A stretch of DNA of 64,000 nucleotides from Candidatus Poribacteria bacterium (GTDB lineage: Bacteria > Poribacteria > WGA-4E > PCPOR2b): assembly GCA_965215015.1 (NCBI GenBank), contig OZ244042.1, forward strand, positions 5,024,001-5,088,000, written 5' to 3'. Below the pieces are notes generated by a model. The model made no database searches and had not been told where the DNA came from. It saw only the letters and a list, made by a program, of their open reading frames with translations. Shown here piece by piece: positions 16,213-64,000 of the stretch. The position numbers and the translations under genes are program-made. The stretch's first letter is position 1. The number at the start of each line of letters is the position of its first letter.

Positions 16213-16948
16213 GGCGAGTCAATGGGCGAAGTTCTCTCGCCTACGCCCCCTATCTGTATCTATGTTTTCTAGGTCATCCGTTTCAGCCACGATTCAGACA
16301 ATAAGGAGCCCCTTCCTCAGACCTATCTCGGTGTTTAGATATGAACGTGAGGCCTCTAATCCTGTGGATCCTTCAATCCTGAAAATCTTGATTCAGACAA
16401 TATTTATGAACACTGATACCCTTGCGGGTCAACAGGGCAAACAGGACAATCAGACAGGCGAGTCAATGGGCGAAGTTCTCTCGCGTGCGCCCCCTATCTG
16501 TATCTATGTTTTCTAGGTCATCCGTTTCAGCCACGATTCAGACAATAAGGAGCCCCTTCCTCAGACCTATCTCGGCGTTTAGATATGAACGTGAGGCCTC
16601 TAATCCTGTGGATCCTTCAATCCTGAAAATCTTGATTCAGACAATATTTATGAACACTGATACCCTTGCGGGTCAACAGGGCAAACAGGACAATCAGACA
16701 GGCGAGTCAATGGGCGAAGTTCTCTCGCGTGCGCCCCCTATCTGTATCTATGTTTTCTAGGTCATCCGTTTCAGCCACGATTCAGACGATAAGAAGCCCC
16801 CTTCCTCAGACCTATCTCGGCGTTTAGGTTATGAACGTGAGGCCTCTAATCCTGTGGATCCTTCAATCCTGAAAATCTTGATTCAGACAATGTTTATGAA
16901 CACTGATGACCTTGCGGGTCAACAGGGCAAACAGGACAATCAAACAGG
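16213..16948. repeat. Tandem direct repeat, 3 x ~244 bp, near-identical, non-coding
   Basis: Units start GGCGAGTCAATGGGCG at 16213, 16457 and 16701; only a few SNPs and indels. Confidence 0.95.
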
Positions 16949-48887: not shown

Positions 48888-49445
48888 ATGGAAAAATTAC
48901 AAAATCCCATCCCTATTTACACCATCGGCTACGGCAGCCGTTCGATCGAACAGTTTATCGAAGTGCTACAACAGCATAAAATTGCCTACCTTATTGACGT
49001 GCGTTCAACTCCCTATTCTCGCTACAAACCTGAATTTTCCAGAGAGGCACTAGCGGCGGAGCTACAACGACACCGGATTCGGTATGTGTTCATGGGAGCC
49101 ACACTGGGCGGGCAGCCCGATAACGAAGATTGTTATGATGAGAACGGACAGGTAGACTACCAAAAAGTGAAGGATACCAAAAACTACCAGAGGGGGATTG
49201 AACGTCTCCAAACGGCTTTTGATCAGCAACAATGCGTGGCTCTCATGTGTAGCGAGGGCAAGCCGGAGCAGTGTCATCGGAGCAAACTCATCGGAGCATC
49301 GCTCGATGAACAGGACATCTCCTTGATTCACATTGACGAAAACGATGAACAGCAGACACAGGAGAAAGTCATTGACAGACTAACGGGAGGACAACTGCGG
49401 CTGTTTGGTGAAGACACATTCCACTCGCGCAAGCAGTACCGGTAA
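48888..49445 (+). CDS. DUF488 family protein
   Basis: IYTIGY, LIDVRS.PYS, LGG, ALMCSE..PEQCHR. Confidence 0.92.
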   Translation: MEKLQNPIPIYTIGYGSRSIEQFIEVLQQHKIAYLIDVRSTPYSRYKPEFSREALAAELQRHRIRYVFMGATLGGQPDNEDCYDENGQVDYQKVKDTKNYQRGIERLQTAFDQQQCVALMCSEGKPEQCHRSKLIGASLDEQDISLIHIDENDEQQTQEKVIDRLTGGQLRLFGEDTFHSRKQYR

Positions 49446-49451
49446 TTTGCC

Positions 49452-49940
49452 ATGAAACCTAAAATTGTCACCATCGGCGTATACGGGTTTGATGAAGATA
49501 GTTTCTTTGCCGCTTTATGCAAGGCAAAGGTGGATACCTTCTGTGATATTCGCAACCGGCGGGGTGTGCGGGGTTCAACCTATGCGTTCGCTAACAGCCT
49601 GCGTTTGCAAGGACGGCTCGCAGAACTCGGTATCCGCTACATCTATCGCAAGGACCTCGCACCCACCAAAGCGGTTCGGGATAGGCAAGCGGCAGCGGAT
49701 AAAGCGACGAAAACCGCCAAACGCAAACGCACAGCATTAGGAGAGGCGTTTATTACGGCGTACCACACCGAATGCCTCGCAATGTTTGACTCACACAATC
49801 TACTAGAAGACCTTGAAGAGGGCACACAGGTTGTAGCTCTCTTTTGTGTTGAAAAAGATCCCGAGGCGTGCCACCGCTCGCTGGTAGCAGATAAACTAGC
49901 AAAAGAACTGAAACTGGAAGTGGAGAATATTGTGCCATGA
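49452..49940 (+). CDS. DUF488 family protein (second subtype)
   Basis: IVTIG, CDIR, LAPT, LFCVE.DPEACHRSLVA. Confidence 0.9.
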   Translation: MKPKIVTIGVYGFDEDSFFAALCKAKVDTFCDIRNRRGVRGSTYAFANSLRLQGRLAELGIRYIYRKDLAPTKAVRDRQAAADKATKTAKRKRTALGEAFITAYHTECLAMFDSHNLLEDLEEGTQVVALFCVEKDPEACHRSLVADKLAKELKLEVENIVP

Positions 49941-52438
49941 AAGTCCTGATTGTCGCCAAAACCCGACTGGGCAGCGGCGTGTGTATAGGCGCAATTACAG
50001 AAGAGGGTGAAAGTGTGCGGCTCATCCCGTTCAACGAAGATTCGCATGACAGAGCGAATCGAGAATACGAGATTGGAGATGTTTGGGAGATTGCCTCGAG
50101 ACCAGAGACGTCTCTGATCCCGCCCCATAACGAAGACATTAGGGTTCGTGAAAAGCGGTATCTTTACCTCGCAAGCGCGAGCGAGTTGGAAGGGGCTATT
50201 GAACGCTTCATGCCGCCGAAAATCGGGGGGCCAACCGTGCTTTATGAGGGCTTGTTGCAATCGACAGGAAGTGGTGCCCTCTACATTGCCAAGCAGAATG
50301 ATATCCCACCGTACAGCACGACGTTTTGGCGACCGGATCAGCCGCTCAGTCGTGATACGGAAGGAAAGCGCGTGCGGTATCGCTATCCTACCAACAATGG
50401 CGGTTCTACACTGACCTTCGTTGGTTTCCAAGAACCGCTTGAAGTCATTCCCGCAGGCACACTCATGCGTGTCTCTCTAGCACGTTGGTGGCGACCAGAA
50501 GATACGCCAGATGCAGAGGGATGCTGTTACGCACAACTTTCTGGCTGGTTTCTCGCAGAAGAACCTAAACGTCCCATTGAAGTGGAATCTCCTCGACCTC
50601 AAACGCCGCTTCAAACGCCCTTAGAAATTCTCAAAAATGTTTTTGGGCATGAGGCGTTCCGACCATTACAGGAGCAAATCATCAACCATATCTTCAACCG
50701 GCACGATGCGTTGATTGTTCTGCCGACGGGGGGGGGTAAGTCGCTTTGCTACCAGCTCCCTGCCCTTATCTTCGAGGGCGTAACCGTTGTTGTATCACCG
50801 CTGATTTCGCTTATGCAGGATCAGGTAATGCAGTTACAACAGAGGGGTATTCATGCCGCTTTTCTCAACAGCACTCTCAGCCATCCAGAATATATTGCTA
50901 CGATGCAACGTGTCAGACAGCGGGAAGTCAAGCTACTTTACGTTGCTCCTGAAACGCTCATGCGACCTGAAATTTTGTTGATGCTTGATGAATCAAATGT
51001 GGCATGTCTGGCGATTGATGAAGCTCACTGTATTTCACAGTGGGGGCACGATTTTCGTCCAGAGTATCGACAACTGGTTTCCATTCGTGAACGATTCAGG
51101 AACGCTGTCTGTGTTGCACTCACAGCTACTGCTACACAGCGAGTTCGACAGGACATCAAACAATCGCTCACAATTCAAGAGGGAAATGAGTTTATTGCCA
51201 GCTTTAACAGAGAAAATCTCTTCATCGCCGTTGAACCGAAGGTTGATTTGTCTAAGCAAACGCTGGAGTTTCTCAATGCCCACCGTCATGAATCGGGCAT
51301 CATCTACTGTCAAACGAAGAGGCGGGTTGAATCCTTGTCTCGTGAACTAGTTGAACAGGGAATTTCGGCACTCCCCTATCACGCAGACTTGGATAGCGAA
51401 ACGCGCAAGCAGAATCAGGATGCCTTTATCAACGGTGATACTCAGGTAGTAGTGGCAACAATTGCCTTCGGTATGGGGATTGATAAAGAGGATGTGCGCT
51501 TCGTGCTACATGCGGGTTTGCCAAAGGAACCTGAATCTTACTATCAGGAGATTGGGCGTGCCGGACGAGACGGAAATCAGGCAGAGTGTCTATTACTTTT
51601 TAGCTATGGCGATGTAAACACCATCCACCATTTCATCGATCAGGGCGCGCCCTCTGAGCAAGAAGGGCGATTGAAACGCTTGCAGACGCTTGTTAATTGG
51701 GCAACTTCTACAGCGTGCCGCCGCAAAGGGGTACTGGCTTATTTTGGAGAGCAATACGAGAATCACAATTGTGGGATGTGTGATAACTGCTGCCAAGCGG
51801 AAATGGACCGGGTTGATTTGACGATACCCGCTCAAAAATTTCTATCATGTGTTGTTAGGACGGGTCAGATTTTTGGGGAAGTGTATATTATCGATGTCTT
51901 GCGCGGATCAAAAGCGCAAAAGGTTATTAAGAACGGTGCCGATAAACTCTCCGTCTACGGCATCGGTACGGAGTACAGCAAAGAACAGTGGAAACGTCTG
52001 GCGTTACAATTTCTCCAATATGGTCTTCTTAATCGAGATTCACAACATGGGAGCCTGCGTTTGACGCAGAGAGGATGGGCAGTACTCAAAAGTAAAGAAC
52101 AGTTCCAAGGGGTTCCGGTGAATTCGGTAAACCACATGGCTGAAGAACCGAATACTTATGAAAAGACCGCCGAAAAATCAAACGAATACAACCATGAACT
52201 TTTCGAGCAACTTCGCGCGACCCGCAGAGAGTTAGCAGATGCTGAACATGTCCCGCCATACATTGTTTTCCAAGACAGGCCGTTACGAGAGATGGCTGCC
52301 CAATTACCACAATCGGTGGAAGCATTCATACAGATTCACGGCGTCGGTGCTGCGAAAGTTGAGAAATACGCCGATGTTTTTTTGCCTATCATTCGCGCCT
52401 ATTGCCAAGAACACGGATTGATGGACGGGAATCGGTAA
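49937..52438 (+). CDS. recQ: Dual-OB-fold domain fused to a complete RecQ helicase (helicase-Zn-RQC-HRDC)
   Basis: N-term VLIVAKTR..SGVCIGAI...VRLIP...PPHNED; then LPTGGGKS, DEAHCISQWGHDFRP, QEIGRAGRDG, CGMCDNC, PPYIVF HRDC; ATGA coupling to the DUF488 gene. Confidence 0.88.
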   Translation: MKVLIVAKTRLGSGVCIGAITEEGESVRLIPFNEDSHDRANREYEIGDVWEIASRPETSLIPPHNEDIRVREKRYLYLASASELEGAIERFMPPKIGGPTVLYEGLLQSTGSGALYIAKQNDIPPYSTTFWRPDQPLSRDTEGKRVRYRYPTNNGGSTLTFVGFQEPLEVIPAGTLMRVSLARWWRPEDTPDAEGCCYAQLSGWFLAEEPKRPIEVESPRPQTPLQTPLEILKNVFGHEAFRPLQEQIINHIFNRHDALIVLPTGGGKSLCYQLPALIFEGVTVVVSPLISLMQDQVMQLQQRGIHAAFLNSTLSHPEYIATMQRVRQREVKLLYVAPETLMRPEILLMLDESNVACLAIDEAHCISQWGHDFRPEYRQLVSIRERFRNAVCVALTATATQRVRQDIKQSLTIQEGNEFIASFNRENLFIAVEPKVDLSKQTLEFLNAHRHESGIIYCQTKRRVESLSRELVEQGISALPYHADLDSETRKQNQDAFINGDTQVVVATIAFGMGIDKEDVRFVLHAGLPKEPESYYQEIGRAGRDGNQAECLLLFSYGDVNTIHHFIDQGAPSEQEGRLKRLQTLVNWATSTACRRKGVLAYFGEQYENHNCGMCDNCCQAEMDRVDLTIPAQKFLSCVVRTGQIFGEVYIIDVLRGSKAQKVIKNGADKLSVYGIGTEYSKEQWKRLALQFLQYGLLNRDSQHGSLRLTQRGWAVLKSKEQFQGVPVNSVNHMAEEPNTYEKTAEKSNEYNHELFEQLRATRRELADAEHVPPYIVFQDRPLREMAAQLPQSVEAFIQIHGVGAAKVEKYADVFLPIIRAYCQEHGLMDGNR

Positions 52439-52773: not shown

Positions 52774-53868
52774 TCACTCCCAACCGAAGGTAGTGCGTAC
52801 GTATTGATGAGATGCCTGCCGGAGACCATACCACCTATCCTTTCCCCAAATTTCTAGGGGCAGGCTTGAATGCCCTGTGTCTTCCTTCAATTCCGCTTGG
52901 ATAAGCCGCTGGGCTTCTCGCGAAGCACCACACAGCACAATAGCCCGTGCTTCAATACCACCGAGTTGCCTCATCCGTAAAATAGCCTCCATCCCTTTTT
53001 GTTTCACCACGGCATGTTCATAAGCAAGGGTGCACGAAATGACAACAATTTCGTACCCCAGTACTGCAACCACGTCAAGTTCAAAAGGTTTAACGCTTGC
53101 GTCTGTCGCGCCGGCTCGCCGCACAAACACCCTGTGGAAAAGTTTATAGTTCTGTCGATCTGGGCTCCGCCGAGAAATATCTGTCAAGGCATACTGAAAA
53201 GCGTCATACGCACCGTATTCAAAAAAGTTGGGGGTGAGAGTCCAATCGTTCCTCAGGGCCGCAAAACCTTTAGCCAACTGTTGTTCGCTGAGGGTTCCGG
53301 GGGCCGGGCAGTCTTTCGTCTGATTGTTACCCGAATCATCCCAGTATTCGTAAGAAAACGGACCGATTTCAAAGCCGTTGAGTTCGGCAATGCGACGCAG
53401 ACATGGCTCGACTCCCTTCCGGGTATCTGAGACTAAGGCATTTCCCGCCCGGTCCATGAGGGCCGCGCCTGAGTCAGCCCGTGCATCTAGATAGGAGGTT
53501 TCTAAGTCAATAGTTGTCGATAAAGCGGCTTTAACAACTTCTGCAGCTGCAACAGTTTCAACGCACATTACCTTGGTGCCGCCGGTGTAGTGCACATGAA
53601 TGCGATTGGTATTGGCAGGTAGGTTGTTCTTGAGATTCCGTGTAATGTCGTCGCGTACAGTGGATGGGTTCCCAGACACCGTTTCAACAGCATCAATAGA
53701 AAACGCGTTGCGGCAATACTGCAGCAACCGGTCCCGCTCCGCCTTTGTTTCCTCCGTATGCACAAGTCGTACATGAATTGGATGGGGCAGGTTATCTTTC
53801 AAATGATGCAGTGCCACCCAGACAGGTAGCGGATTGGTTCCAACGGTAAGAATAAGGAGTGTTCCCAT
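52774..53868 (-). CDS. CARF + PD-(D/E)xK nuclease effector (Card1/Can2, DUF1887-like)
   Basis: LTVGTNPLP and HYTGGTK CARF motifs; FELDVVAV.GY..VVISCT nuclease core; QLGG.EAR. Confidence 0.8.
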   Translation of the reverse strand: MGTLLILTVGTNPLPVWVALHHLKDNLPHPIHVRLVHTEETKAERDRLLQYCRNAFSIDAVETVSGNPSTVRDDITRNLKNNLPANTNRIHVHYTGGTKVMCVETVAAAEVVKAALSTTIDLETSYLDARADSGAALMDRAGNALVSDTRKGVEPCLRRIAELNGFEIGPFSYEYWDDSGNNQTKDCPAPGTLSEQQLAKGFAALRNDWTLTPNFFEYGAYDAFQYALTDISRRSPDRQNYKLFHRVFVRRAGATDASVKPFELDVVAVLGYEIVVISCTLAYEHAVVKQKGMEAILRMRQLGGIEARAIVLCGASREAQRLIQAELKEDTGHSSLPLEIWGKDRWYGLRQASHQYVRTTFGWE

Positions 53869-54038
53869 AACGGCAGTTTCTCCGTTTTTTTTCAAGACGG
53901 TCAACAAATGCTTGCCGGCCGCGGAAAATGTTGCTTTTGTATTGCGGCATCTTTAGAGGTTCTTGGGTGGTTTAGGTGAAGGGTAACGAGCGAAGCGGAA
54001 GTTTCGGAACATAGGAGGAGTTAGGGTTTTATTTTTTT

Positions 54039-55298
54039 CTATGTCAATGTCCTACCAACGAGCCTGTCAAGATCTGTCAGAATACCTTGGACCTCGCAAA
54101 TATCTGCTTTTGCCGAACTTTTAATTGACCGACCTCGCAGATTCCGGATTGGCATTCCGCAATGAGCGAGTTCATTTCTCAGATTTCTCGCCCGCTCCCA
54201 CAACTGTAGACACCAACTCCTTTCTGGAAAATTCCCACCCCCTAAAATAGCAAAAGGATTACCTTCTGATTTGGCATTGACCCAAAGATTGAGGTCCTTT
54301 TCAGTCTTTTCACGATCACTACTCTTCAACCAATCACGTTCAAGTTGAACGCAAGTCCATGAAATGAGCCATTCCCGGGTTAAGGTAACGGCTTGTAGAT
54401 ATTGTTGATTCTCAGCGTACCATTGAATCTGTTTGTGCTGCTTCCGGAGACTTTCACAGTCATTGTTTGGATACGTCGGATTCTGAAGGGCAAGCGGTTG
54501 GTAGGAGGCTTGGATTTGTTCGATAAGTGTATAGAAAGGTTGAACCCAGGTCGCAACATTACTTTCCGCTCCAGCAAGAGAATTAGACAAATCTACCGCC
54601 GCTTTTTGAACCTCCAACGTTCGATTTGTCATCAACGCTTCTGAGAGTTTTTCTAATATTCCTGACACCCTCAATAGACCAATTGCTATTCTCTCTTCAT
54701 GGAGCTGTTTCTGAGTGTTACTCAATAATTCTGCAATCGGGCGAGCATCCCCGGTCCGTTGGAACATTGTCACAGCTCCAAGCCAGTCAAGCAAGCTGAC
54801 GAATGGAGTTAGATCAAAGACTGGCTTTTTTGGATTACTTCGTTCTACTGCCTCATAAGCCCCATAGATGACTCGTTTAATCTCCACGCCACTTTTGACA
54901 TTACGAACGTAGGCAAGGGCGAGAAATGTCAAAAACGGAAGTGAACGGAAACCATGTGTGATATCGAAAAGCACCCTGTCATTATCCTGAATCTTGTCAA
55001 CAACGATATTGAAGATTTTCCACAGTTCCGTTTCGTCTGCTCCTTCTGGAATTGAAACAGGAACCACTTCCGTTCGTTTACCCAGTAATTCACTCAGAAA
55101 TGCCAACCGTCCGGTCGAAATCTTATCTGAAACGGGTTCCTGTGCTGCCAAATCGGTAGTGAACATATACAACAATTCTGGCTCGAAAAATTCGACAATC
55201 GCTTCAGCAAAAAACCGAGTTTTGCACGACTCCCTTCCTTCAAAGGTGTAGATACTTTCGTAAAGGGGGCCAATTCCTAGGAATGTGAAGGCTTTCAT
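54039..55298 (-). CDS. csx1: Csx1 (TM1812/TIGR02221 type) CARF-HEPN ribonuclease
   Basis: FTFLG, FDITHGFRSLP (DxTHG), RNELAH HEPN motif; AAGGAG RBS. Confidence 0.9.
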   Translation of the reverse strand: MKAFTFLGIGPLYESIYTFEGRESCKTRFFAEAIVEFFEPELLYMFTTDLAAQEPVSDKISTGRLAFLSELLGKRTEVVPVSIPEGADETELWKIFNIVVDKIQDNDRVLFDITHGFRSLPFLTFLALAYVRNVKSGVEIKRVIYGAYEAVERSNPKKPVFDLTPFVSLLDWLGAVTMFQRTGDARPIAELLSNTQKQLHEERIAIGLLRVSGILEKLSEALMTNRTLEVQKAAVDLSNSLAGAESNVATWVQPFYTLIEQIQASYQPLALQNPTYPNNDCESLRKQHKQIQWYAENQQYLQAVTLTREWLISWTCVQLERDWLKSSDREKTEKDLNLWVNAKSEGNPFAILGGGNFPERSWCLQLWERARNLRNELAHCGMPIRNLRGRSIKSSAKADICEVQGILTDLDRLVGRTLT

Positions 55299-55396
55299 GC
55301 AAGTTGGCTCCTTGAAAACTTCATAATAGTTTCCGTTATCCAAACGCTGAGCTATAGAATCACCTTGCCAATTTTTCCTGTTCCATCAACCATTCA

Positions 55397-56692
55397 TTAC
55401 CTATATTCCCAAAATGTAAGCGTTCCCTCGTCAGCGTTCGGTGTGTAATGAAAGTGTGATGGAACGACAACCGATTCAAGGTTCCCATCACTTTCTTCGA
55501 GTTGATTGGAAATCCCTATCAACTCCTCTTGTACACCCACCAATTCGTCCGATGGTAATTTTTTAAGGATTTTGCGAAATGTGGTACTGTAGGTAAGCCG
55601 TGGCAGTTCCAAAATTCTTGACGAAATCAGACTCGCTTTTAAATTATCCCAGATCCATTTTCCAAAGTCCGATACCATCGCATAATCCTCGACCGGGGTA
55701 ATCAAGGTTTCGTGGATTCCGGTTAATTGGCTCCGTTCAATAAATTCGTCTCGTGTCGCAACCTGGGCCAACTGCGCTGCACAATTTTTTACTGATGTAA
55801 TGTCAATTAACTGTGGGTCGGGATTGGATCTGTTTGGGGAGGAAAACTGTGCACAAGCCTCGTCAAGACTAATTTGCTGCGGCTTCTCGGGATCTTCTCT
55901 AGGTGGAATCTGAAAATTCTTGTCAAGTCTGAAACTGCGCGAAACTTTATTGCGAGATGCCCTGCGGAAATACCCGTATCCGACAGCGGTCTTTGCTCCC
56001 AAGCCCTTGTCTTTTAATGTTTTGTCAACCCAATCTTGGGTGGTGTCAATCAGAGCTTGTTCCTTCGCCAAGATCACAAATCGAAAAGCTGTTTGCCCAA
56101 CAGTCAAAAAGTTAATTGGGATTGGATTCTGCGTATCCGTAGGTAGCTTTGTACCTGTGTAGTAATCAGGAAAATGCGGATTCATTATATCAAGCGAAAG
56201 AGTTACATTGTCTATCGGATAAGCAGGGAGAAATTGTACATCTCCCGAGGATTCTTGGCTGCCGAAAACAGAAAGAAAATTACCGTCTTTCATTGCCAAA
56301 CTTTCCTCGTTACCGAACTTCTCCTGAATTACCCAACTCCGCACAACACCCTTAAAGGCACTTCCAGGGATATAAGGGATACCGTAGACATGGTCAAGCG
56401 TCATGTTAGTTTCCTGAACATGTTCGCCACCAAGCCCGATAATCATCCGCCAATCTACCTCGTAGAACTCACAGAAATAGCGGTAACTCTTTATCAGATA
56501 ATTAAGTTGATTCGTTTGACGATCTCGGAGATGAGCAATCGCCCTCTGTGAATCGCCAAGTTCCGTTGATTCAATTGAAAACTTAACTTTTCCATCTTCA
56601 TAATTCAAGAAATACTGATAACGGAGCGCAAAGTTTGAAATTTGATTTCGATTAACGAGGTTTCGCGTGTCAGAAGGACAATAAATTTGCAT
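55397..56692 (-). CDS. cmr6: Type III-B RAMP Cmr6 with ~190-aa C-terminal extension
   Basis: GIPYIPGSAFKG, DIMNPHF, NPIPINFL, GLGAKTAVGYG; the ORF continues 189 codons past the G-rich loop. Confidence 0.92.
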   Translation of the reverse strand: MQIYCPSDTRNLVNRNQISNFALRYQYFLNYEDGKVKFSIESTELGDSQRAIAHLRDRQTNQLNYLIKSYRYFCEFYEVDWRMIIGLGGEHVQETNMTLDHVYGIPYIPGSAFKGVVRSWVIQEKFGNEESLAMKDGNFLSVFGSQESSGDVQFLPAYPIDNVTLSLDIMNPHFPDYYTGTKLPTDTQNPIPINFLTVGQTAFRFVILAKEQALIDTTQDWVDKTLKDKGLGAKTAVGYGYFRRASRNKVSRSFRLDKNFQIPPREDPEKPQQISLDEACAQFSSPNRSNPDPQLIDITSVKNCAAQLAQVATRDEFIERSQLTGIHETLITPVEDYAMVSDFGKWIWDNLKASLISSRILELPRLTYSTTFRKILKKLPSDELVGVQEELIGISNQLEESDGNLESVVVPSHFHYTPNADEGTLTFWEYR

Positions 56693-57090
56693 CAGTTATC
56701 CCCCTCCACCTCTTTCATTAGTCCATCAACGAAACGCCGAACCCAATTCAACAATGCCAACGTCTCTATCGTAATCCGGCGATATTCGTTGGAGGACTTA
56801 CGAATGACAACCTCAACGAGTTCGCTATTTTCATCCAATTTAATTAGCTGTTTGTAGGCTAGCCATTTGCCAATCGTATCATATAATTTTGTGTTTCCGT
56901 CATCTCGCTTGTTGATGAATGCCAATGCCTGTCCAAGCCCATTGGTTTTAATTAGCACTGGCAGTTTTTTCGCACCGGATTTGTACTTTTTCTTTAGATC
57001 TCCGTTAGAATTTTGGGCTATCTCCTTAACGCGATCATAAGCGAAGGCCGCACGTCCCTGTTCAATGCCTCGGATGCTGTTTTGGTTCAT
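56692..57090 (-). CDS. cmr5: Type III-B small subunit Cmr5
   Basis: EQGRAAFAY, KKLPVLIKTNGLGQALAF, EYR..T.ETLALLNWVRRF. Confidence 0.92.
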   Translation of the reverse strand: MNQNSIRGIEQGRAAFAYDRVKEIAQNSNGDLKKKYKSGAKKLPVLIKTNGLGQALAFINKRDDGNTKLYDTIGKWLAYKQLIKLDENSELVEVVIRKSSNEYRRITIETLALLNWVRRFVDGLMKEVEGDN

Positions 57091-57100
57091 TTCTGCCTCC

Positions 57101-58075
57101 TTAATCTTCGTAAATTTTCGTCCTAACAATCCCTTTACCGATTGTTGCGTTCCCCCCCAGTTGAATTACATCTGGCAGCCCGTCTTCAAAGAATTCCATC
57201 ACCTTTTTCGACTCATCGTGCTTCTCCTCTTTCTCCTGATCTGTCAACTGGAAGATGCCTTTATCGGCACCATTTTCCTGAAAGATGGGTGTGGTTAAGG
57301 CGAGCGAGTAAAGAATCGAATCGGAGGGAAGATATTCTTCGTACCACAAAGCACCCTCTTGCACAGTTCCGGTTTCTTGGTTAATCTTGATTCGTGCGAT
57401 GACCTCCGTTGAGAGCGTGACGAAATCGCGAAAATCATCATCACTCAACACAACGAGATCTGTCCGCATTTTTTCGCGCCAATAACTGTACTCGTCATCC
57501 GCAGGTAGGACCCGTTCTGAGAGCCAATTTGCTAACTCATTTACGGTCTGATTGGTTTCAACATCAAAGGTGTACTCTTCTAGCACAATCTTTTTATCAG
57601 CGACAATAAGATTTGAGTCATCGGGGAGGCAGTTGGTGCTCGTGATGGAGTGTTGGAAGTCTGTATTACAGATTTGAAGGTCCTGTTTGAACCGCTCAAG
57701 CACAGCAGGGCAGGTTATCCACCCAAAGACACCCGCAACTGACTTGACAGGAAAAAGCAGCAAGCGAGCATCGGTAAATCCTAAGGCCCCTGCGTACAGA
57801 TCGCCTTGCTCAGGGCCAAACGTTAAACTAATAGCTTCCTTGTAGTTTTCATCCTTTTCAGAAGTGATGTTCCAGCCGCGTTCAAGCTGTGCCAAATTGG
57901 GCTGGGTGCTGAAAACTTCCCGAATCCCACCCTTGATGCCAGATGCCTCGATCTTGGGATAGTCCGTATGTTTTTCGCGTTGGATCGGCAAATCAACGAT
58001 GCCGAGATCGCTACCACTTCCCGCGTGCAGTGATGTTTCAACGATTAAAAACATAGGCTTTGCGGATTTGAACAT
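57101..58075 (-). CDS. cmr4: Type III-B RAMP Cmr4
   Basis: LHAGSG...VDLPIQRE (catalytic Asp present), DARLLLFPV, GALWYEEYLP, QLGGNATIGKG. Confidence 0.95.
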   Translation of the reverse strand: MFKSAKPMFLIVETSLHAGSGSDLGIVDLPIQREKHTDYPKIEASGIKGGIREVFSTQPNLAQLERGWNITSEKDENYKEAISLTFGPEQGDLYAGALGFTDARLLLFPVKSVAGVFGWITCPAVLERFKQDLQICNTDFQHSITSTNCLPDDSNLIVADKKIVLEEYTFDVETNQTVNELANWLSERVLPADDEYSYWREKMRTDLVVLSDDDFRDFVTLSTEVIARIKINQETGTVQEGALWYEEYLPSDSILYSLALTTPIFQENGADKGIFQLTDQEKEEKHDESKKVMEFFEDGLPDVIQLGGNATIGKGIVRTKIYED

Positions 58076-58092
58076 AATGGTCTCCTTCATCA

Positions 58093-59184
58093 CTATTTTG
58101 ACACTGCGCCAACGTATGCAAGCCCAAACCCCTCCTGTGTACGTTGGTCGCCAATGTTTTTGTAATGCAAACAATCTAAAATTGCATCGGTTTTTTCGTC
58201 GTTGATCAACCGAAAATAGTAAACACTCCCAGCAGGTACCGCGCGATACGCCTGTTTGGGACGGCGGTGTGCAACATCCCAACCCCCAATAGTCACGTAA
58301 TTCCCTACCGCGGCAGTAATTAACTCAATATCCCCGTAAAAACACTCAGGCAACCAACCATCATTAAAAATCGCATGGGTTGCTAAATAGAGTTTGAATT
58401 TTCCAGAGTCACGCACCATGTCTCGGATTGTGGAACGGTCATCAACCGAAATCGGGTCAGGCTTCTGGGAAGCTACCTCGTAGGTAAAACCTTTGCCCTC
58501 GCCGCCAAGTTTTATCAGTCCACTTTTAGGAAGCCGATCAATTCCATCAACATCAACGACAAATCCGAATTCCGAATTGCGGAAGCGTTTCAGGTTAATT
58601 CGATAAAGCATACTTTCGTCAGTTGCCAGCGTTCTGTGGCTTCGGGCGATACCCACCTTCGGTTCATCCATGATAAAACTCGACTCTTCTGATGTTAGGC
58701 CCGAAGTTTCACCGAGCAGATATTTCCGCAAGTTATCGTACGAGATATAGCCACCTGCATGTTCAACCTGCATTTCGGAATTGTCCCATGTCAGGAGGGT
58801 GGACAATTTGGAACTTGAAGGAAACGTGTCGTGCTGTGATTCGATCGATAGCGGATATAGTATCGCGTTTCCCGATTTCTTTTCGGATACCAAGTCGCGT
58901 GGGGTTGGATAGTAAAGAGGTCCATCGCCGCGTCCTAAAAACACTCCCTTGATTTGGATTGATGCACCCGCGAGCGACTGTTTTGTACCAATAATTGATT
59001 TCATCTCACCACTGGTAAACTGTGCCATATCGCCGCAGAAAGCGATATAAGCGGTTCGCAATGCACCCATTACAGTTGAAGGAAATGGAGTGTCAATTGA
59101 GTAACCCTCCGATTGCTCTCCCCGTGTAAAGGGACGGCCATCTCGGAAGAAAAAGGTATCATTCGGTTTCAGAAACAGTCTCAT
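58093..59184 (-). CDS. cmr3: Type III-B Cmr3
   Basis: P.DTFFFRDGRPF, PFPST..GALR, LGGEGK, GGWD, AVPAGSVY, GFG. Confidence 0.93.
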   Translation of the reverse strand: MRLFLKPNDTFFFRDGRPFTRGEQSEGYSIDTPFPSTVMGALRTAYIAFCGDMAQFTSGEMKSIIGTKQSLAGASIQIKGVFLGRGDGPLYYPTPRDLVSEKKSGNAILYPLSIESQHDTFPSSSKLSTLLTWDNSEMQVEHAGGYISYDNLRKYLLGETSGLTSEESSFIMDEPKVGIARSHRTLATDESMLYRINLKRFRNSEFGFVVDVDGIDRLPKSGLIKLGGEGKGFTYEVASQKPDPISVDDRSTIRDMVRDSGKFKLYLATHAIFNDGWLPECFYGDIELITAAVGNYVTIGGWDVAHRRPKQAYRAVPAGSVYYFRLINDEKTDAILDCLHYKNIGDQRTQEGFGLAYVGAVSK

Positions 59185-61066
59185 CCGTTTTGCCTCCCCG
59201 CGCGATAAAGTTGATAATCTCCAAAAAACTGATAAAGTCGTCAAATTTCATCCGCTCATTAGCCAGCAGAACGGTTAAATCTTGAACATTTTTATCAATC
59301 CTCTGTTGAAGTTCTGTATCCGAACGAACTTTTTCACTCGTTGCATGTCGGATCAGGCGTGCAAGTTCAGACTCAATAATGCCCGGTAATTTAAGGCCGC
59401 CATCGCGATCGGTCAGACGCGTAAAGACATCGCGGAAAGTATACATGAATTTCTTGGAAACTTCACCTTTTTGGATAATTTCAACGAGGTTTTGACTCGC
59501 TTTAATCATATCAATATTTTCAGGGCCTTCAACCTCGTATTTCCATTTAAAAACTGTCTGCGAGATGTTACCAGAACGTTTCAACAACGCGATACCGAGG
59601 GCGTTTTTCCCTTCAACGGATTTCGCTTCCTGCTCCATAGTACGGGCTCGACTCAACACAGCACCAAGCGGCACTTTGCAATGGGCGATACAGACCCCTG
59701 CAGATGCTGTTGATGCCAAATTCTCATCGCGGCTTAAGTTTGGAAAATCCCATCGAAGCCGATCAAGGATTTTCAGCAAATCACTTAAGTTTGCCAAGGC
59801 GAGCACATCGTCGCCCCCAGCGTAGATGAGCTTTCCAAGGTAGTCTCTATCCACGATCCGCCGAACTTTTGTCGTATACTTATTCAGTTGCCTGCTAATC
59901 TCCGTATGTGCTTCCCAGCCCTTGGCCCGTGAAATGGTTTCTCCCATCCCGTCTCCGTCAAGGGCAATTACCGCAAAGTATCGGTTCGGATCGAAGCCAA
60001 TCTTATTAACTAAGCGTTGACGCAATTTCTCGCACCGCTTAATTGAAAAACGCTGCGCGTTTCTATCAATTCCGTAGTCACGTTCAAGATTTTGTGTCGA
60101 AAACGACTCTTCAAAAAGCCAGTCTCCATCAACATTCCAAGTTTTCTGGATCTTTTTGATCTTGAGTTTTGGCACCGGATCCACAAGCTGATTGTTATTA
60201 GTACCTCCAAGTGTGCTAACCGACTTAACAAACTTCTTGTATATCTCTATTGCATCGTCATCATCTGCAATCCGAAGTTTGAAGTCAGCAGTGGACACCT
60301 CCGATGTTGATTGAAAAGAGAGGGTTCCGATCTCCTCATATCTTTCACCAAAATACAATCCCGTGAGACGTTTGGTGAGACAAACCGTGCAAAGTGCCTC
60401 ACCCCGGCGGCAATATCTTGCACTACGCTGTGCAAACCGCTGCCACCATTCCATTGGATTGCTTTTGCCGTTATGAAATATCTCTCGTTCCCCGCAGAGC
60501 GAGCATTTCCGCCCACTTTCGGCAACCTGATGAAAGGCACGGCAGTTTTTGACGGATGCGAGCCGCGTTCCAGTTTGGGCATACCAATCCTTGTACTCCT
60601 CACCGCCCCTACTCGAAACTACCCAGTAGAGCTCCAAAAAATGCTTAGTCTGTTTTCTAAAAAGCTCAACCGCGTAAGTATCGTTCCACGTTTGATCATC
60701 AACCGTCTTAGCAAAGGTATCAACGGCATGTTTTGCCATCTTCTCAAATTCGCATTGGACAGCCGCTTCGACATGTTTCATTGTGTCGGTTAATTCGCGG
60801 ATTGACAACTCTTCACTCAGAGCGAGAAAGAGATTGGGAAACGATGGCAGCGTAATATCTCTGCCTTCCCAGAATTCAAAAGGTGAATCACTTTCAATTG
60901 AAGGATAGATGATTTTGACACCATCTTTAGGGTAAATCTGATTGATTGCAGTAGCATTGAGATATGATAGAATGTAGCTGCCGAGCCACAAATCTTCCGT
61001 TTTTCGTGCTGTCGTGATAAACTTCTGTACGGGCGTAATCGTGAATAAGATGAGATTTTCAGTCAT
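59159..61066 (-). CDS. cas10: Cas10/Cmr2, HD-less, with an intact palm cyclase motif
   Basis: PVQKFI..ARK..DLW.GSY, CSLCG / LCTVCL Zn motifs, LDGDGMG, YAGGDD; 635 aa. Confidence 0.95.
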   Translation of the reverse strand: MTENLILFTITPVQKFITTARKTEDLWLGSYILSYLNATAINQIYPKDGVKIIYPSIESDSPFEFWEGRDITLPSFPNLFLALSEELSIRELTDTMKHVEAAVQCEFEKMAKHAVDTFAKTVDDQTWNDTYAVELFRKQTKHFLELYWVVSSRGGEEYKDWYAQTGTRLASVKNCRAFHQVAESGRKCSLCGEREIFHNGKSNPMEWWQRFAQRSARYCRRGEALCTVCLTKRLTGLYFGERYEEIGTLSFQSTSEVSTADFKLRIADDDDAIEIYKKFVKSVSTLGGTNNNQLVDPVPKLKIKKIQKTWNVDGDWLFEESFSTQNLERDYGIDRNAQRFSIKRCEKLRQRLVNKIGFDPNRYFAVIALDGDGMGETISRAKGWEAHTEISRQLNKYTTKVRRIVDRDYLGKLIYAGGDDVLALANLSDLLKILDRLRWDFPNLSRDENLASTASAGVCIAHCKVPLGAVLSRARTMEQEAKSVEGKNALGIALLKRSGNISQTVFKWKYEVEGPENIDMIKASQNLVEIIQKGEVSKKFMYTFRDVFTRLTDRDGGLKLPGIIESELARLIRHATSEKVRSDTELQQRIDKNVQDLTVLLANERMKFDDFISFLEIINFIARGGKTDETVSETE

Positions 61067-61075: not shown

Positions 61076-61885
61076 CTATGCCAAAATTGCATCAATGAAA
61101 TCCGCCTGTTTCTGCTCGTATGCAAAAACAGAGTTAAGTTGTGTGACAATCGGGGCAAATTTATCGGCGACTTTCTGGATACGAACATGAATCGGCGAAG
61201 CCATCCGAGGGTTGGCACTCCCCAAAGCATTATCCCTGTGATCATGTGTTGCCTGGCCAATCCTGCGGAGGAGCCTATTGACCTCCTCGCATGTATCACC
61301 CAAATAAATCGCTTGGATCGCCGGGTAGTCTGGAATCGGAGTTGTGGGAGCAACCTGAATCTTATTAGGATGTTTCTGGAATCGCCCCGGCAAGATCCCA
61401 TCAAGCGTTTGAAACACTTTGTCTTGGAGTTCCGCGACGGTATCAAAACTCCAATCTTGATAACGAATTGAGCCAAATCCGCGTCGCGAACGATTGCCAA
61501 CACCGCCGAGCAAGAAGCCAAGTTTGGCGATTTTTTCGTACTCGTTAAGTTCTGGGGCCGCGAGTATAAGGTTAAATCTGCCGTTAGGAAGATAAGCTTG
61601 GCTCTTAAAGCTACCAGATTTATGCGGGAGGGGAGCATATTCGCCACGCTGCAATGCAGCGAGACCAGAAATACGAACCGATAAAGGAGATCTGCCTTGC
61701 GTATTACCGAATAAGCGGCTTTCCCTTTCGCGCAAATTGTCCCCGTCTATTTCCCCCACCGTTCCCCGCCACCAGTAGCGAAATAGGGCTTTAAACGGCG
61801 GTGGTCGAAGTTCGGGCTTTTGGTTATCTGGCCCATGAAGAAACATCGGTGTCACGGTTTCAAGTTTCAATTGAACACTTTGCAT
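61076..61885 (-). CDS. cmr1: Type III-B RAMP Cmr1
   Basis: TVTPMFLHG, ELRPP.FK.LFRYWWR, LGGVGNRSRRGFG, RMASP. Confidence 0.92.
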   Translation of the reverse strand: MQSVQLKLETVTPMFLHGPDNQKPELRPPPFKALFRYWWRGTVGEIDGDNLRERESRLFGNTQGRSPLSVRISGLAALQRGEYAPLPHKSGSFKSQAYLPNGRFNLILAAPELNEYEKIAKLGFLLGGVGNRSRRGFGSIRYQDWSFDTVAELQDKVFQTLDGILPGRFQKHPNKIQVAPTTPIPDYPAIQAIYLGDTCEEVNRLLRRIGQATHDHRDNALGSANPRMASPIHVRIQKVADKFAPIVTQLNSVFAYEQKQADFIDAILA

Positions 61886-62052
61886 TGTGCTCTCCTTGAA
61901 CTGGACTTTAGTCATCCAAAGCAGTAAAATCCGTGAAATTACTTCAACACGTCTAAAATTTTGTTAAAAAAATTGCCATTGAAATACAGTTCACATATCA
62001 TCACACGGTTTAAGTTACATCTCCCGAACACTTTGCAATTTTCTAGAAATGT

Positions 62053-62154: not shown

Positions 62155-63915
62155 TCAGTCAAGCCAATGGTGCTCGCCCTGCACAAACGCATTGCTTTCC
62201 TGTTCTTCCGTTGGTCGGCGGTCGATGAGGGCAAAGCGTTTCACCGGGCGATCCAGTTTTTGGGCCTCTTCGACTAGGCGTTGCACAATCAACCCCATCA
62301 GTGTTGAGCCACCAGTCATGTTGGCTATTACCTGGTCGGCACACAATAGATAAACCCGAGCACGTTCCGCTACCGCATCGATCTCATCAAAACCGCCGAT
62401 CGGGTCTATCAATTCAACCTGTTCAATGCGCCCTTCAAAGCCCGCATGACTAGCAGCTTCAAGAATACCGCCTGCTGATGCTTCTGAACAAATCATCAAA
62501 CAGGTATCGGGTTGGGCGACCTTTATTGCCGAGAACAATACGCCCGGCCGCAGCCCTTGTGGTGAAAGCAGCAGGCGACCACCATTACCGCCCAATGGGG
62601 GCAGGTTAACGGAACCCTTTTTCAGTTCATTCCAAAAATTCCGAACCGCTTCAAGAGATTTGGGAGCCTCTTCAAACACCTCTTCACGCATTGCATGATG
62701 GTGAAGTGCATTGCGTAACTCGTTCGCCAGCTGATTCCAGAAGGTGCCGAATTTTTTCTGCTCCGATGTACTATCTCCGGTTTTGGCAAAGGCACCGAGA
62801 GCCCCAAGGCGGTGCTCATACTGCTGCCGTATTTCGCGGGTCAACCAAGCTCCAGTCTGCTCGTCGAGATTGTCTGACTTCCAAATTGCCCAAGAGACTA
62901 CCCACTCCCGCATTAGACCAGCTGCGAGTGAGAGTTGGCCGCGTTCTAGATACAAATCAATCATATCAGCCTGACGTTCCAACTCATTTTCATCCAAAAG
63001 GATGCTCTGTTTCCATTGCCTCCTCTCTGGAGTCTTTGCAAAGGCCGATTTCCTTGCCACACTGACGATAGTCTTGGTTAGTTCATCAACCAATGGTGGG
63101 AGGCCGGCAACATCCATGAGGGGCAGTTTCTCAATTGAATCAATAAGCTCCCTACTGGCTTTTTCTAATTCTAGGGGTAAGGCAGACTCGTAAGCAAATG
63201 CATACTTTTCAAGCCCAGCAACGGAATACCCGACTTGCTTAACTTGGTCTACCAGCTTTTGAGCTTCACTCTTTTTATTTTTCTTAAATAAATTCGCCTT
63301 TTCCTCATCTAGTCTATCTGCCAGCGGCTGGAGGAGGTCCGCCATGGGCTTGGTTGTTCCCTGATCTCGAAACATCCGTACCGCGTGGAACCATTCCGGC
63401 AATTCGAGTAATGGCTGCAGGTCAATTATGGGCTTCACGTCTTCTGGATCTTCAAACATACCGTAGTAGGCACCGCGAATCTTGACCCCGCGAAGCGATT
63501 TAAGGTAAAGCACCAAAGCATAGAAGATAAATGGAAAATGTCGTAGCCCATGGGTAACATCAAGCGTGAGTTCTGCGCCTTCTGGAATACGGTTGGCAAC
63601 AGATTCAAGAATCTGACTAATTTCTTCACGGTTGTTTCCGTTGGGGATATCAACCACTTCAGGGACAAAGCCTAGCGTCTCACAAATTCCCGTCTGAAAG
63701 ATTGGCCACGTCGTGTCCTTAGCTCCCTGCGTTATTACCACAACAACACGGTTAGGCAGCTGCTCTGGGGATAGAAGTTTCACCAAAGCTAATGGGGCAA
63801 GCTCTGCTTCATCTAGTTGCCCATTCATCTCGTATTTTGTTTTTTTTCTAGATGTCCCCAGACTAGTCAGCAAAATATGCGGCACATTTGAGGAGGGGTG
63901 AGTTGTTATCTCCAT
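62155..63915 (-). CDS. csx1: Csx1-like CARF-HEPN protein with an additional C-terminal CARF-like domain
   Basis: LLTSLG, LDVTHGLRHFP, LRNALHH HEPN motif, then LLLSPQGLRPGVL...IANMTGGSTLM. Confidence 0.82.
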   Translation of the reverse strand: MEITTHPSSNVPHILLTSLGTSRKKTKYEMNGQLDEAELAPLALVKLLSPEQLPNRVVVVITQGAKDTTWPIFQTGICETLGFVPEVVDIPNGNNREEISQILESVANRIPEGAELTLDVTHGLRHFPFIFYALVLYLKSLRGVKIRGAYYGMFEDPEDVKPIIDLQPLLELPEWFHAVRMFRDQGTTKPMADLLQPLADRLDEEKANLFKKNKKSEAQKLVDQVKQVGYSVAGLEKYAFAYESALPLELEKASRELIDSIEKLPLMDVAGLPPLVDELTKTIVSVARKSAFAKTPERRQWKQSILLDENELERQADMIDLYLERGQLSLAAGLMREWVVSWAIWKSDNLDEQTGAWLTREIRQQYEHRLGALGAFAKTGDSTSEQKKFGTFWNQLANELRNALHHHAMREEVFEEAPKSLEAVRNFWNELKKGSVNLPPLGGNGGRLLLSPQGLRPGVLFSAIKVAQPDTCLMICSEASAGGILEAASHAGFEGRIEQVELIDPIGGFDEIDAVAERARVYLLCADQVIANMTGGSTLMGLIVQRLVEEAQKLDRPVKRFALIDRRPTEEQESNAFVQGEHHWLD

Positions 63916-64000
63916 AAGGATTGGCTCCAATTTTATTTTTACGCTTAAATTGAATGGGTCTGCGAATGAGATACAATCCTTACGTCATTCCCATAATTGT

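Follow-up and report, generated by a model that had tools for sequence, protein, structure and literature searches.

What does a core subunit of a CRISPR surveillance complex do with a second domain behind its conserved end? The question is raised by a gene in a 64,000-nucleotide stretch of a Poribacteria genome (the window), in which an open reading frame on the minus strand (55397–56692) encodes a Cmr6 protein of 431 amino acids plus stop. The RAMP core of this protein extends to residue 243 and is followed by 188 residues in frame, with the TAA stop at 55397–55399. The NCBIfam model TIGR01898 (Cmr6) matches residues 81–242 (E 5.2e-43) with 147.5 bits, above its curated cut-off of 51.1, which makes the protein a Cmr6 equivalog. 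In the Pfam search PF03787 (RAMPs) covers residues 83–243, and the solved chain nearest to the core, found with the family profile A2 against the PDB, is the Cmr6 chain 9arw_H (E 1.9e-54). The GAKT..GYGYF motif of Cmr6 finishes at about residue 242 and the tail continues in the same frame. A preliminary description of this DNA had pointed to extra in-frame residues behind GAKT..GYG; all the strings it quoted are found, and the interval it gave, 55397–55966, corresponds to residues 243–431 and the stop.

The gene, read on the minus strand throughout, begins with a Cmr6 N-terminal region (residues 1–80, 56453–56692) that is conserved in alignment A1 and precedes the RAMP model match. The RAMP core (residues 81–243, 55964–56452), defined by TIGR01898, PF03787 and 9arw_H, is followed by a basic, Pro-rich and less conserved linker (residues 244–276, 55865–55963), delimited by pLDDT, dN/dS and charge. 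A remnant of the last CARF strands and a winged-helix-like domain then occupy residues 277–358 (55619–55864), as assigned by hhalign, the AF2 model and the reach of the profile on PDB 8phb. The C-terminal part (residues 359–431, 55400–55618) is a truncated, acidic RelE-like remnant with β1, α1, α2 and two strands, according to the AF2 model and a profile of the RelE part. The frame was confirmed with public runs, in which independent contigs from other studies span the junction of core and tail (window position 55963) without a differing letter or a gap. Record 4 of X5 spans 55667–56800 and record 10 of X7 spans 55587–56005; X2 spans the entire stretch but may be the source sample. No RNA run was among those listed as carrying the sequence.

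An inspection of the neighbouring genes, all on the minus strand, indicated a type III-B locus with cyclic oligoadenylate (cOA) signalling. Upstream of the fusion gene lie cmr5 (56692–57129; PF09701 E 1.1e-34, TIGR01881), cmr4 (57101–58282; TIGR02580 E 2.3e-71) and cmr3 (58093–59244; PF09700 E 4e-59). The cmr4 frame listed is the longest possible, and the true start probably lies further in, as the model is matched only from residue 76. They are preceded by cas10/cmr2 (59159–61066; 635 amino acids; PF22335 palm2 E 7e-30, PF12469, TIGR02577), which has GGDD in its translation and no match to an HD family, and by a short form of cmr1 (61076–61915; 279 amino acids; TIGR01894 E 2.2e-9). The order cmr1-cas10-cmr3-cmr4-cmr5-cmr6, with cmr6 last, is found here and in all eight related loci examined. 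Directly downstream of the fusion gene is a Csx1-like protein with DxTHG and R-x4-H motifs (54039–55343; TIGR02221 E 3.6e-32, TIGR02549 E 7e-11). It is followed by a Card1/Can2-like candidate CARF effector (52774–53907; PF23400 CARF_Card1 E 7.8e-4, below its cut-off), which is found with 74–82% identity next to the locus in L016, L019 and L020. A second, longer Csx1-like gene upstream of cmr1 (62155–63930; 591 amino acids) shows DxTHG-like and HEPN-like motifs and no Pfam family above cut-off; its homologues hold the same place in L017, L020 and L021. The cyclase palm with GGDD, the TIGR02221/DxTHG protein and the weak Card1-CARF match are the features by which we assigned cOA signalling. No CRISPR array was found in the 64-kb window or in the 14 kb beyond it, and arrays are present elsewhere in the genome. 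The 66-nt repeats at 45.2–45.9 kb are not repeat-spacer units.

The tail was proposed in the preliminary description to be the post-CARF half of an APE2256/TIGR02619 (Cami1) protein, and sequence comparison agrees. Cami1 is a CARF-wHTH-RelE effector, of which PDB 8phb is the apo form. A phmmer search of 1.84 billion representatives gave 25 proteins matching the tail at E ≤ 0.001, three of them Cmr6 fusions or a fragment of one. Among ten of the 25 that were scanned for families there were one Cmr6 fusion, eight Cas_APE2256 (CARF) proteins and one protein without a family match; in the eight, the tail alignment starts directly behind the CARF domain. With hhalign, the fusion family and the Cami1-like family align with a probability of 99.4% (E 7e-22, 139 columns), pairing residues 277–416 with Cami1-like positions 189–332. 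This profile alignment shows that about 20 final CARF residues persist in the tail. A profile of the RelE part alone recovered the tail at E 1.3e-6 from the 35,711 ORFs of this genome. These results support homology of the tail to the post-CARF region of Cami1-like proteins.

Other searches gave weaker matches or none. The tail alone matched no Pfam or NCBIfam family at E ≤ 10, RelE/ParE and CARF models included, and phmmer gave no PDB sequence at E ≤ 10. The full protein matched no CARF model (PF09651 and TIGR02619 included) at E ≤ 0.1, so the claimed absence of a CARF domain holds, apart from the remnant of its last residues. Against the PDB the family profile A2 reached Cmr6/Csm5 chains only. 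Cami1-like profiles cover the winged-helix-like region of 8phb, reaching only to residue 258–259 of 406, and found no RelE toxin chains; the C-terminal halves of Cami1-like proteins matched nothing in Pfam. A protein atlas with homologue P0033 gave no usable feature match, all its structure rows having TM ≤ 0.36. In Foldseek the AF2 tail model had no match at E ≤ 0.001, and all matches lay above E 0.1. Rank 1 was 8phb, 'apo Cami1', at a non-significant E of 0.17, with RelE toxins next. RelE chains stood at ranks 2, 8, 9, 11, 14 and on, all at E ≥ 0.28, including E. coli RelE 4fxe_E (probability 0.87, E 0.28 or above). They made up ten of the best 50 rows, with TM-scores normalised to the target of up to 0.52. 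Of the suggested match to Cami1 and RelE, the profile part stood with hhalign; the structural part gave 8phb at the top and then RelE, neither with significance.

The AF2 model of the tail (pLDDT 89.1, pTM 0.77) predicts with confidence a winged-helix-like domain and a three-stranded RelE remnant. Its first 30 residues have pLDDT 46–76 and also evolve faster, which fits a tether-like build in the model. The winged-helix part consists of H56–60, H62–70, H77–80, E88–91, E94–97 and H99–115 (tail numbering), and the order of elements is identical in the AF2 model of the genome's own Cami1-like protein. The RelE-like part follows with E123–125, H127–135, H138–157, E171–176 and E181–187. Here the genome's own Cami1-like protein has the full RelE topology, β1-α1-α2-β2-β3-β4-α3, whereas the tail has two C-terminal strands versus three and is without the last helix. 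The RelE part is therefore shortened, as had been suggested, by one strand and the C-terminal helix.

Several conserved positions of the Cami1-like sheet are lost or variable in the tails. F157, R158, R164, S166 and C167 are invariant in the Cami1-like alignment, and we infer a catalytic role for the Arg, Ser and Cys positions. No tail has a residue opposite R164, where the alignment shows a gap, and clade 1 lacks the RVSC strand that bears the invariant Arg. The Arg of the HFR motif, matching R158, varies among H, R, D, G, N and S in A1 and is His in this window. In the tail the last-strand Arg is replaced by Trp, and the C-terminal helix is absent together with its His. The charge has changed as well, the net charge of the RelE-like part being -3 (pI 4.9) versus +2 (pI 8.7) in Cami1-like proteins. 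Across 34 tails the module has a median net charge of -8.5 (range -18 to -4) and a pI of 4.6, and the linker has a median of +1. We gave less weight to general binding of RNA or DNA by the module, since each of the 34 tails is acidic. Alignment A2 contains 25 invariant tail positions, and ten conserved tail-specific residues (K59, Q67, T70, R71, F100, W103, R116, R130, K134 and N153, tail numbering) are absent from Cami1-like proteins.

The fusion is not confined to this genome. We found it in 39 other database proteins (40 matches at E ≤ 0.001 among 339 candidates, all with PF03787) and as a stop-free open frame in 10 further genomes of the phylum. The module is present in 11 of the 24 Poribacteria-phylum genomes with a Cmr6 above cut-off and missing from the other 13. 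A search of genome contigs with the tail gave one locus only, in a Poribacteria MAG. In the tree, all fused modules lie on one side of a branch with support 100/99 and a length of 1.15, and the two fusion clades descend from one old fusion. The tail diverged from all Cami1-like proteins long ago, and the idea that it is a recent copy of an adjoining cami1 was rejected, as the neighbour is not its closest relative and the fused modules form one long-stemmed group. The module is kept by purifying selection similar in strength to that on the core: dN/dS is 0.126–0.277 for the module (19 of 21 pairs computable) versus 0.076–0.248 for the core, and 0.235 versus 0.194 and 0.258 versus 0.248 in the two least saturated pairs. 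For the linker the values are 0.15–0.47 (13 of 21 pairs computable). The host lineage consists of sponge-symbiont bacteria, in which the fusion is a core type III-B subunit with a conserved and probably inactive half of the Cami1 effector. We found no published description of such a Cmr6 fusion.

These data bear on two readings in which the tail has either no function or its ancestral one. A functionless product, arising by accidental read-through into a decaying cami1 or by misassembly, has an easy origin in an in-frame deletion, since cami1 is frequently found behind the last RAMP gene in these genomes. It is nevertheless extremely improbable in view of the identical contigs from other studies, the stop-free occurrence in 40 database proteins and in 11 genomes from two clades, the module dN/dS of 0.13–0.28, the confident fold and the invariant tail positions. 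As far as sequence evidence goes, the contigs, the spread and the dN/dS rule out that the tail is a neutral read-through confined to this assembly. The second reading is that the module is still an mRNA interferase and performs crRNA-controlled, RelE-like cleavage on the ribosome without a second messenger; RelE-like cleavage without a messenger had been offered in the preliminary description. An HFR-like motif is indeed retained in many members (consensus HFRY), and RelE chains rank high among the structural matches. The deletion of the RVSC strand with its invariant Arg in clade 1, the variability of the other Arg, the Trp in the last strand, the loss of the C-terminal helix with its His and the change of the surface from basic to acidic nevertheless make cleavage very unlikely.

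Two further readings, both serious rivals, keep the module functional without the ribosome. The fusion gene is followed after 12–16 bp by a full Cami1-like gene in L015, L016, L017 and L019, and in L018 a Cami1-like gene adjoins it with overlapping listed frames, so that cami1 is adjacent in five of the eight other loci. Of the 11 fusion genomes, 9 contain a full-length Cami1-like gene, versus 2 of 13 non-fusion genomes with Cmr6 and 18 of 152 others, counts that include kin genomes, which are not independent. A Synechocystis CARF-RelE protein is reported to co-sediment with crRNA and CRISPR2 proteins (PMC9676260). All this would suit a module that keeps the protomer-contact surfaces of Cami1 and recruits, holds or restrains full Cami1 at the Cmr complex, so that cA4 made by Cas10 reaches the effector at once or the effector stays inactive until activation. 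We regard this adaptor as unlikely. Two genomes with the fusion, G069 (95% complete, in a single contig) and G082 (94% complete), show no PF09651 match and no Cami1-like match; in this genome Cami1 is encoded 3.9 Mb from the fusion, next to a III-A/I-B locus; the tail has closer relatives than the neighbouring Cami1, and the split between tail and Cami1-like proteins is old; and the adjacency may only reflect how the fusion originated. The other reading needs no outside partner. The module would act inside the Cmr complex, at its Cmr6/Cmr1 head, either as an acidic lid that mimics RNA or as an element of assembly, gating the exposed crRNA 3' seed or compensating for the short Cmr1. The net charge and pI of the module, a Cmr1 of just 279 amino acids, the ten tail-specific residues and the long stem branch after the fusion, which suggests a new function, speak for such a role. 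It too seems unlikely, for the poorly conserved, low-confidence linker of about 30–45 residues suits a tether over a fixed lid, and in 13 of the 24 genomes of the phylum that encode Cmr6 this protein lacks the module.

We favour, tentatively, a docking function. In this proposal the 188 C-terminal codons of cmr6 would encode a flexible linker and then the effector half of a Cami1-type (CARF-wHTH-RelE) protein, exapted and without its sensor and catalytic core, and the first candidate for a partner is bL12, a protein of the ribosomal stalk. Stripped of the CARF sensor and of the catalytic core of RelE, the module would have lost RNA cutting and would hang from Cmr6 as a protein-docking handle. 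Some kind of non-catalytic docking or adaptor role is probable. The ribosome as the partner is possible, at somewhat less than even chances. [quoted passage not shown] Target binding begins at the crRNA 3' end (PMC8376896). With the C-terminal domain of bL12 as its dock, the crRNA-guided complex would bring its Cas10 cyclase to translating ribosomes, where it might either encounter mRNAs during translation or make cA4 near the site of action of Cami1. That the type III-B complex is captured by the bL12 stalk through an inactive Cami1 module, with surveillance and cA4 synthesis on the translating ribosome, is a more doubtful proposition.

A complex prediction with tail residues 45–188 and the C-terminal domain of the genome's own bL12 gave a score of 0.33 (runs 0.31, 0.39 and 0.33), which the tool grades as weak support, with 0.01 for the best of three controls, at least 16% of contacts in common among the runs and a pLDDT of at least 89 for the bL12 partner. 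Of 80 solved complexes 58 pass the mark for this score, as do 2 of 110 mismatched pairs; 7 of the 80 and both of these mismatches do so at 0.60 or under. The counts are only a rough calibration here as our own alignments were used. A score of 0.33 falls in a band in which, by the tool's own account, a pass is wrong in the majority of cases unless the pairing was already likely. The pass may also reflect likeness and not retained binding, because a Cami1–ribosome complex has already been solved (PDB 8phj, titled 'cA4-bound Cami1 in complex with 70S ribosome' in the Foldseek listing). If Cami1 contacts bL12 through its CARF domain, that contact is missing from the tail. bL12 is itself an acidic protein, and the strongly acidic module counts against docking on it; a module whose RelE surface is no longer basic is also a poor candidate for entering the A site. 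The co-occurrence of fusion and cami1 fits a Cami1-directed role equally well.

Comparison with known systems shows where the fusion stands apart. The tail matches the CARF end, the winged-helix-like domain and the RelE β1-α1-α2 plus two strands of Cami1, and both come from type III CRISPR loci, where their genes often adjoin. Unlike Cami1, a free dimeric effector, the module is joined covalently to a core Cmr subunit and, lacking a CARF sensor, is unable to sense cA4; it is also short of one RelE strand and the last helix, its conserved Arg residues are gone or variable, and its RelE part is acidic, not basic. RelE/ParE interferases (E. coli RelE, 4fxe, 4v7k) share the β-α-α-β-β order, whereas the tail has no family model match, an incomplete sheet and no antitoxin context. 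Crn1-type ring nucleases (CARF plus wHTH; 7pq2, 3qyf) belong to the same APE2256/CARF7 assemblage, and the poribacterial Cami1-like profile matches them at E of about 1e-18 to 1e-21. This likeness runs through the CARF domain, which the tail lacks, and the RelE-like part of the tail is absent from Crn1. Csm5 of type III-A is reportedly a docking site for the host nucleases PNPase and RNase J2/R. Like Cmr6, it would be a subunit at the crRNA 3' end serving as a platform to cellular RNA machinery, but the Csm5 link is non-covalent and to degradosome nucleases, whereas the Cmr6 tail is a dedicated, fused and exapted domain. Other fusions indicate that Cmr6 tolerates extra domains: 9arw_H is titled 'CSD domain-containing protein Cmr6', and Synechocystis III-Bv has a Cmr1-Cmr6 fusion (PMC6546367). 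These add an N-terminal cold-shock RNA-binding domain or a RAMP subunit, and not a C-terminal module derived from an effector.

To our knowledge, type III complexes and their cOA-activated ancillary effectors have been treated as separate entities, linked only by a diffusible messenger. Here half an ancillary effector is permanently built into a core Cmr subunit, with sensor and catalytic residues gone and selection retained, which makes it a clear case of an immune effector domain exapted as a non-catalytic module. The module points to a physical link of Cmr with either the ribosome or Cami1. Most likely it is a docking handle on Cmr6, and if so it would represent a new wiring of a CRISPR complex to the cell. 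If the stalk is the partner, the case would show that translating ribosomes can be a place of CRISPR surveillance, and the part of Cami1 sufficient for stalk capture would be identified. Through capture by bL12, CRISPR sensing would then be hard-wired to translation, at the same site at which free Cami1 acts.

The cmr6 fusion gene (55397..56692, minus strand) is an ORF of 431 residues that closes a compact type III-B operon. The operon also contains, on the same strand, cmr1 (61076-61915) and cas10/cmr2 (59159-61066), with cmr3, cmr4 and cmr5 lying between cas10/cmr2 and cmr6. Cas10/Cmr2 has a palm2 cyclase domain, with GGDD visible in its translation, and no match to an HD family. The longest cmr4 frame (57101-58282, minus strand, 393 aa) overlaps cmr3 by 190 nt; the Cmr4 model begins at residue 76, and the true start is probably internal.

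The TIGR01898 (Cmr6) model matches residues 81-242 of the fusion protein (E 5.2e-43). The tail, residues 244-431, matches neither Pfam nor NCBIfam, with the threshold relaxed to E ≤ 10, nor any PDB sequence. The sequence strings and coordinates quoted for this in-frame extension in the preliminary description were exact on re-reading, and the frame is borne out by public-run contigs of other studies, which span the core/tail junction with 0 differing letters and 0 gaps (X5, 55667-56800; X7, 55587-56005). Contig X2, possibly the source sample, spans the whole fusion stretch. A tail-restricted word-indexed search returned 40 proteins at E ≤ 0.001 among 339 candidates, all with a RAMP domain and mostly of 427-452 aa, whose tails are 53-84% identical to the window's; both checked tail motifs are present in 38 of them. 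Alignment A1 holds 36 of the 40, leaving out the fragments P0008, P0017 and P0041 and P0015, a near twin of P0012. Alignment A2, which drops the C-terminally cut P0035 and P0036 and has the tail alone placed first, contains 25 invariant tail positions.

The preliminary description assigned the tail to the post-CARF half of APE2256/TIGR02619 (Cami1) proteins, and the searches support this assignment. When 1.84 billion representatives were searched with the tail by phmmer, 25 hits reached E ≤ 0.001, including two Cmr6 fusions (P0042 and the distant P0044), an odd 181-aa fragment (P0043) and otherwise proteins of about 150-680 aa. Among 10 hits scanned, eight carry Cas_APE2256 (PF09651/TIGR02619), one is the fusion P0044 and one matches no family. 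Tail residues ~50-165 pair with the segment immediately following CARF in the APE2256 proteins, and these proteins match PDB 8phb and 8phj, which the Foldseek table names as apo Cami1 and cA4-bound Cami1 in complex with the 70S ribosome. When A1 was compared with A4, an 18-member alignment of the Cami1-like family, Cmr6 residues 277-416 matched Cami1-like positions 189-332 of 381 (probability 99.4%, E 7e-22, 139 columns). As this alignment begins within the last CARF strands, the old fusion junction lay inside the CARF domain. With a profile of the Cami1-like RelE part alone, the Cmr6 ORF is still recovered at E 1.3e-6 from the genome's 35,711 six-frame ORFs; besides that ORF and the genome's own Cami1, nothing in this set falls below E 1. 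In P0043 an HTH-like N-terminus precedes tail residues 44-127 (71% identity), after which the protein ends; possibly this is a piece of a fusion gene, rearranged or chimeric.

AlphaFold2 with the family alignment gave the tail a pLDDT of 89.1 and a pTM of 0.77, with low confidence in the first ~20-30 residues; for the last 190 residues of the Cami1-like protein encoded in this genome the values were 91.1 and 0.86. Both models share a winged-helix-like part (two short helices, helix, hairpin, long helix) followed by beta1, alpha1 and alpha2. After alpha2 the Cami1-like model completes the RelE topology with three strands and a last helix, whereas the tail has two strands only and ends, so that the shortening of the RelE C-terminal part proposed earlier is seen in the model. 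The structural comparison suggested in the preliminary description gave a match in rank and not in significance: no PDB entry matched the tail model at E ≤ 0.001 in Foldseek, but the best-ranked rows were apo Cami1 (E 0.17) and E. coli RelE (E 0.28, probability 0.87), and further top rows were Cami1 on the ribosome, other RelE toxins and MarR-type winged helices. This ranking is consistent with Cami1 homology, weakly on its own.

In the Cami1-like alignment the sheet invariants are F157, R158, R164, S166 and C167. The tails show a gap at R164 and its strand; the R158 position is H (as in the window protein), R, D, G, N or S; and, once the second fusion clade is aligned, the last tail strand pairs with the final Cami1 strand, Trp standing in for its Arg. 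The RelE-like part (359-431) has a median net charge of -3 (pI 4.9) in 34 tails versus +2 (pI 8.7) in 24 Cami1-likes. The winged-helix-like part (277-358) is acidic in both, and the whole module carries -8.5 (range -18 to -4 in 34 tails). The module would be able neither to sense cA4 nor to cut RNA. Residual nuclease activity is very unlikely given the gapped R164 strand, the variable R158 position, the Arg-to-Trp change and the acidic charge; placement in the A site or general nucleic-acid binding likewise seems unlikely.

A survey of 176 genomes of the phylum with the tail as query recovered the fusion at E < 1e-50 in nine, this genome counted, and in a weaker, longer form in two more (G054, G118), both confirmed as Cmr6 fusions. 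The search for further Cmr6 proteins with the extension thus yielded 39 other database proteins and 10 other genomes of the phylum. The single named relative is a Poribacteria MAG, and two database protein names are likewise Poribacteria. TIGR01898 scores above cut-off in 24 of the 176 genomes, 11 with the module and 13 without. Neutral evolution of the extension, raised earlier as a possibility, was not seen when seven genes, that of the window and six of clade 1 in other genomes, were compared pairwise by NG86 (21 pairs): dN/dS was 0.126-0.277 for the module (19 of 21 pairs), near the 0.076-0.248 of the core (21 of 21), and 0.145-0.474 for the linker (residues 244-276; 13 of 21), these ratios being rough because dS exceeds 1 in most pairs. 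In the two least saturated pairs, module and core gave 0.235 versus 0.194 and 0.258 versus 0.248. That the module is a neutral remnant is accordingly extremely unlikely.

A second, distant fusion clade (497-516 aa; L022:7706-9226, plus strand; L019:9623-11116, minus strand; P0044) carries two or three repeated 'LQEKLLEI..'-like helices inserted in the tail and retains one RelE strand that clade 1 lacks. An unrooted tree covers tails of clade 1 (24) and clade 2 (3) together with the C-terminal halves of 23 Cami1-likes; fusion sequences that were truncated or nearly duplicate, and the shortest Cami1 fragments, were excluded. All fused modules stand on one side of a branch (support 100/99, length 1.15), and the Poribacterial Cami1s form their own clade elsewhere. 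This topology and branch length fit a single old fusion followed by fast change, and disfavour repeated recent copying of cami1 into cmr6. Since cami1 commonly follows the last RAMP gene, an in-frame deletion would be a simple route to the fusion. In several Poribacterial genomes lacking a bona fide Cmr6, a Cami1-like gene adjoins a ~400-aa RAMP gene with a weak Cmr6-model match (for example G080:C127:12792-14820, G109:C9:543543-545578, G105:C1:5182622-5184644).

Cmr6 caps the crRNA 3' end. With its folded, acidic and conserved domain on a loose linker at this end, the tail looks like a docking handle. Excerpts of PMC8376896 place the start of target binding at the crRNA 3' end. The module's ancestor worked on the ribosome, and the leading candidate partner is the C-terminal domain of the stalk protein bL12; Mogila et al. 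(2023) are said to have described capture of Cami1 by the ribosomal stalk. Cleavage of mRNA by Cami1 at the ribosomal A site is stated in excerpts of PMC11229360. The proposed complex prediction with the cognate bL12 C-terminal domain, made with custom alignments so that the calibration counts apply only approximately, scored 0.33 against 0.01 for the best control, with at least 16% of contacts agreeing between runs and a partner pLDDT of at least 89. It passed a mark that 58 of 80 solved complexes and 2 of 110 mismatched pairs also pass; with scores of 0.60 or under, only 7 of the 80 and both passing mismatches do. The outcome counts as weak support; a similar complex is already solved, and the pass may reflect no more than likeness to it. 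On Cami1's ribosomal role and this score we place the ribosome first, as a tentative choice that falls short of an even chance.

Behind the ribosome come a role directed at Cami1 itself and an internal role in the Cmr head, each rather unlikely. The operon is arranged as in the window at 8 of 8 other loci examined; a full Cami1-like gene directly follows the fusion gene at five and is absent there, as in the window, at three. Of the 176 genomes, 29 have a full-length Cami1-like gene: 9 of 11 with the fusion, 2 of 13 with other Cmr6 and 18 of the remaining 152, related genomes not being independent. In G069 and G082 the fusion occurs without any APE2256 protein. This genome's single Cami1-like gene, at 1.187 Mb, lies 91 bp from a CRISPR array of 15.6 kb, part of a Csm (III-A)/I-B/Cas6/Cas1 super-locus. 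That super-locus (G000:C1:1153001-1188554; L055, L014) encodes Csm1-5, Cas6, Cas8b1/Cas7/Cas3 and Cas1b, followed by the array of ~179 or more repeats and then the only full Cami1-like gene; two further arrays lie at 1347517-1351040 and 3453511-3455232. With no CRISPR array, cas6 or cas1 for the III-B module in the window or the next 14 kb, its crRNAs are presumably borrowed from elsewhere in the genome.

The fusion gene is followed on the minus strand by a Csx1-like gene (TIGR02221/DxTHG, 54039-55343) and a weak Card1-CARF match (52774-53907). A second Csx1-like gene (62155-63930, minus strand, 591 aa) precedes the operon; it has DxTHG-like and R-x4-H motifs, an extra C-terminal domain and no Pfam family above cut-off, with homologues upstream of cmr1 in L017, L020 and L021. 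Two DUF488 genes and, after them, a RecQ helicase of 833 aa whose N-terminal domain is DuOB (dual OB) (48888-52438, plus strand) may be a separate conflict or repair module adjoining the CRISPR locus. A DDE transposase fragment (48202-48720, plus strand; PF01609, C-terminal part only) separates the CRISPR-side genes from the rest of the window. At 45251-45874, tandem repeats of 66 nt that are about 60-91% alike do not form a CRISPR array and probably represent a 22-aa coding repeat; a 244-nt unit stands in three tandem copies of 97% identity at 16213-16948.

In agreement with the preliminary description, we found no Cmr6 fused to a Cami1/RelE module in the literature, where coverage of subscription journals is thin and absence is no proof; for Poribacterial type III Cmr systems only unrelated literature was found. 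A single published Cmr6 fusion came up, Cmr1-Cmr6 in Synechocystis (excerpts of PMC6546367), in which the partner is Cmr1 and not a Cami1-derived module. The PDB also holds a cold-shock-domain Cmr6, for which no literature match was found. We rate the system in the window as an ordinary III-B complex whose Cmr6 bears an exapted effector module.
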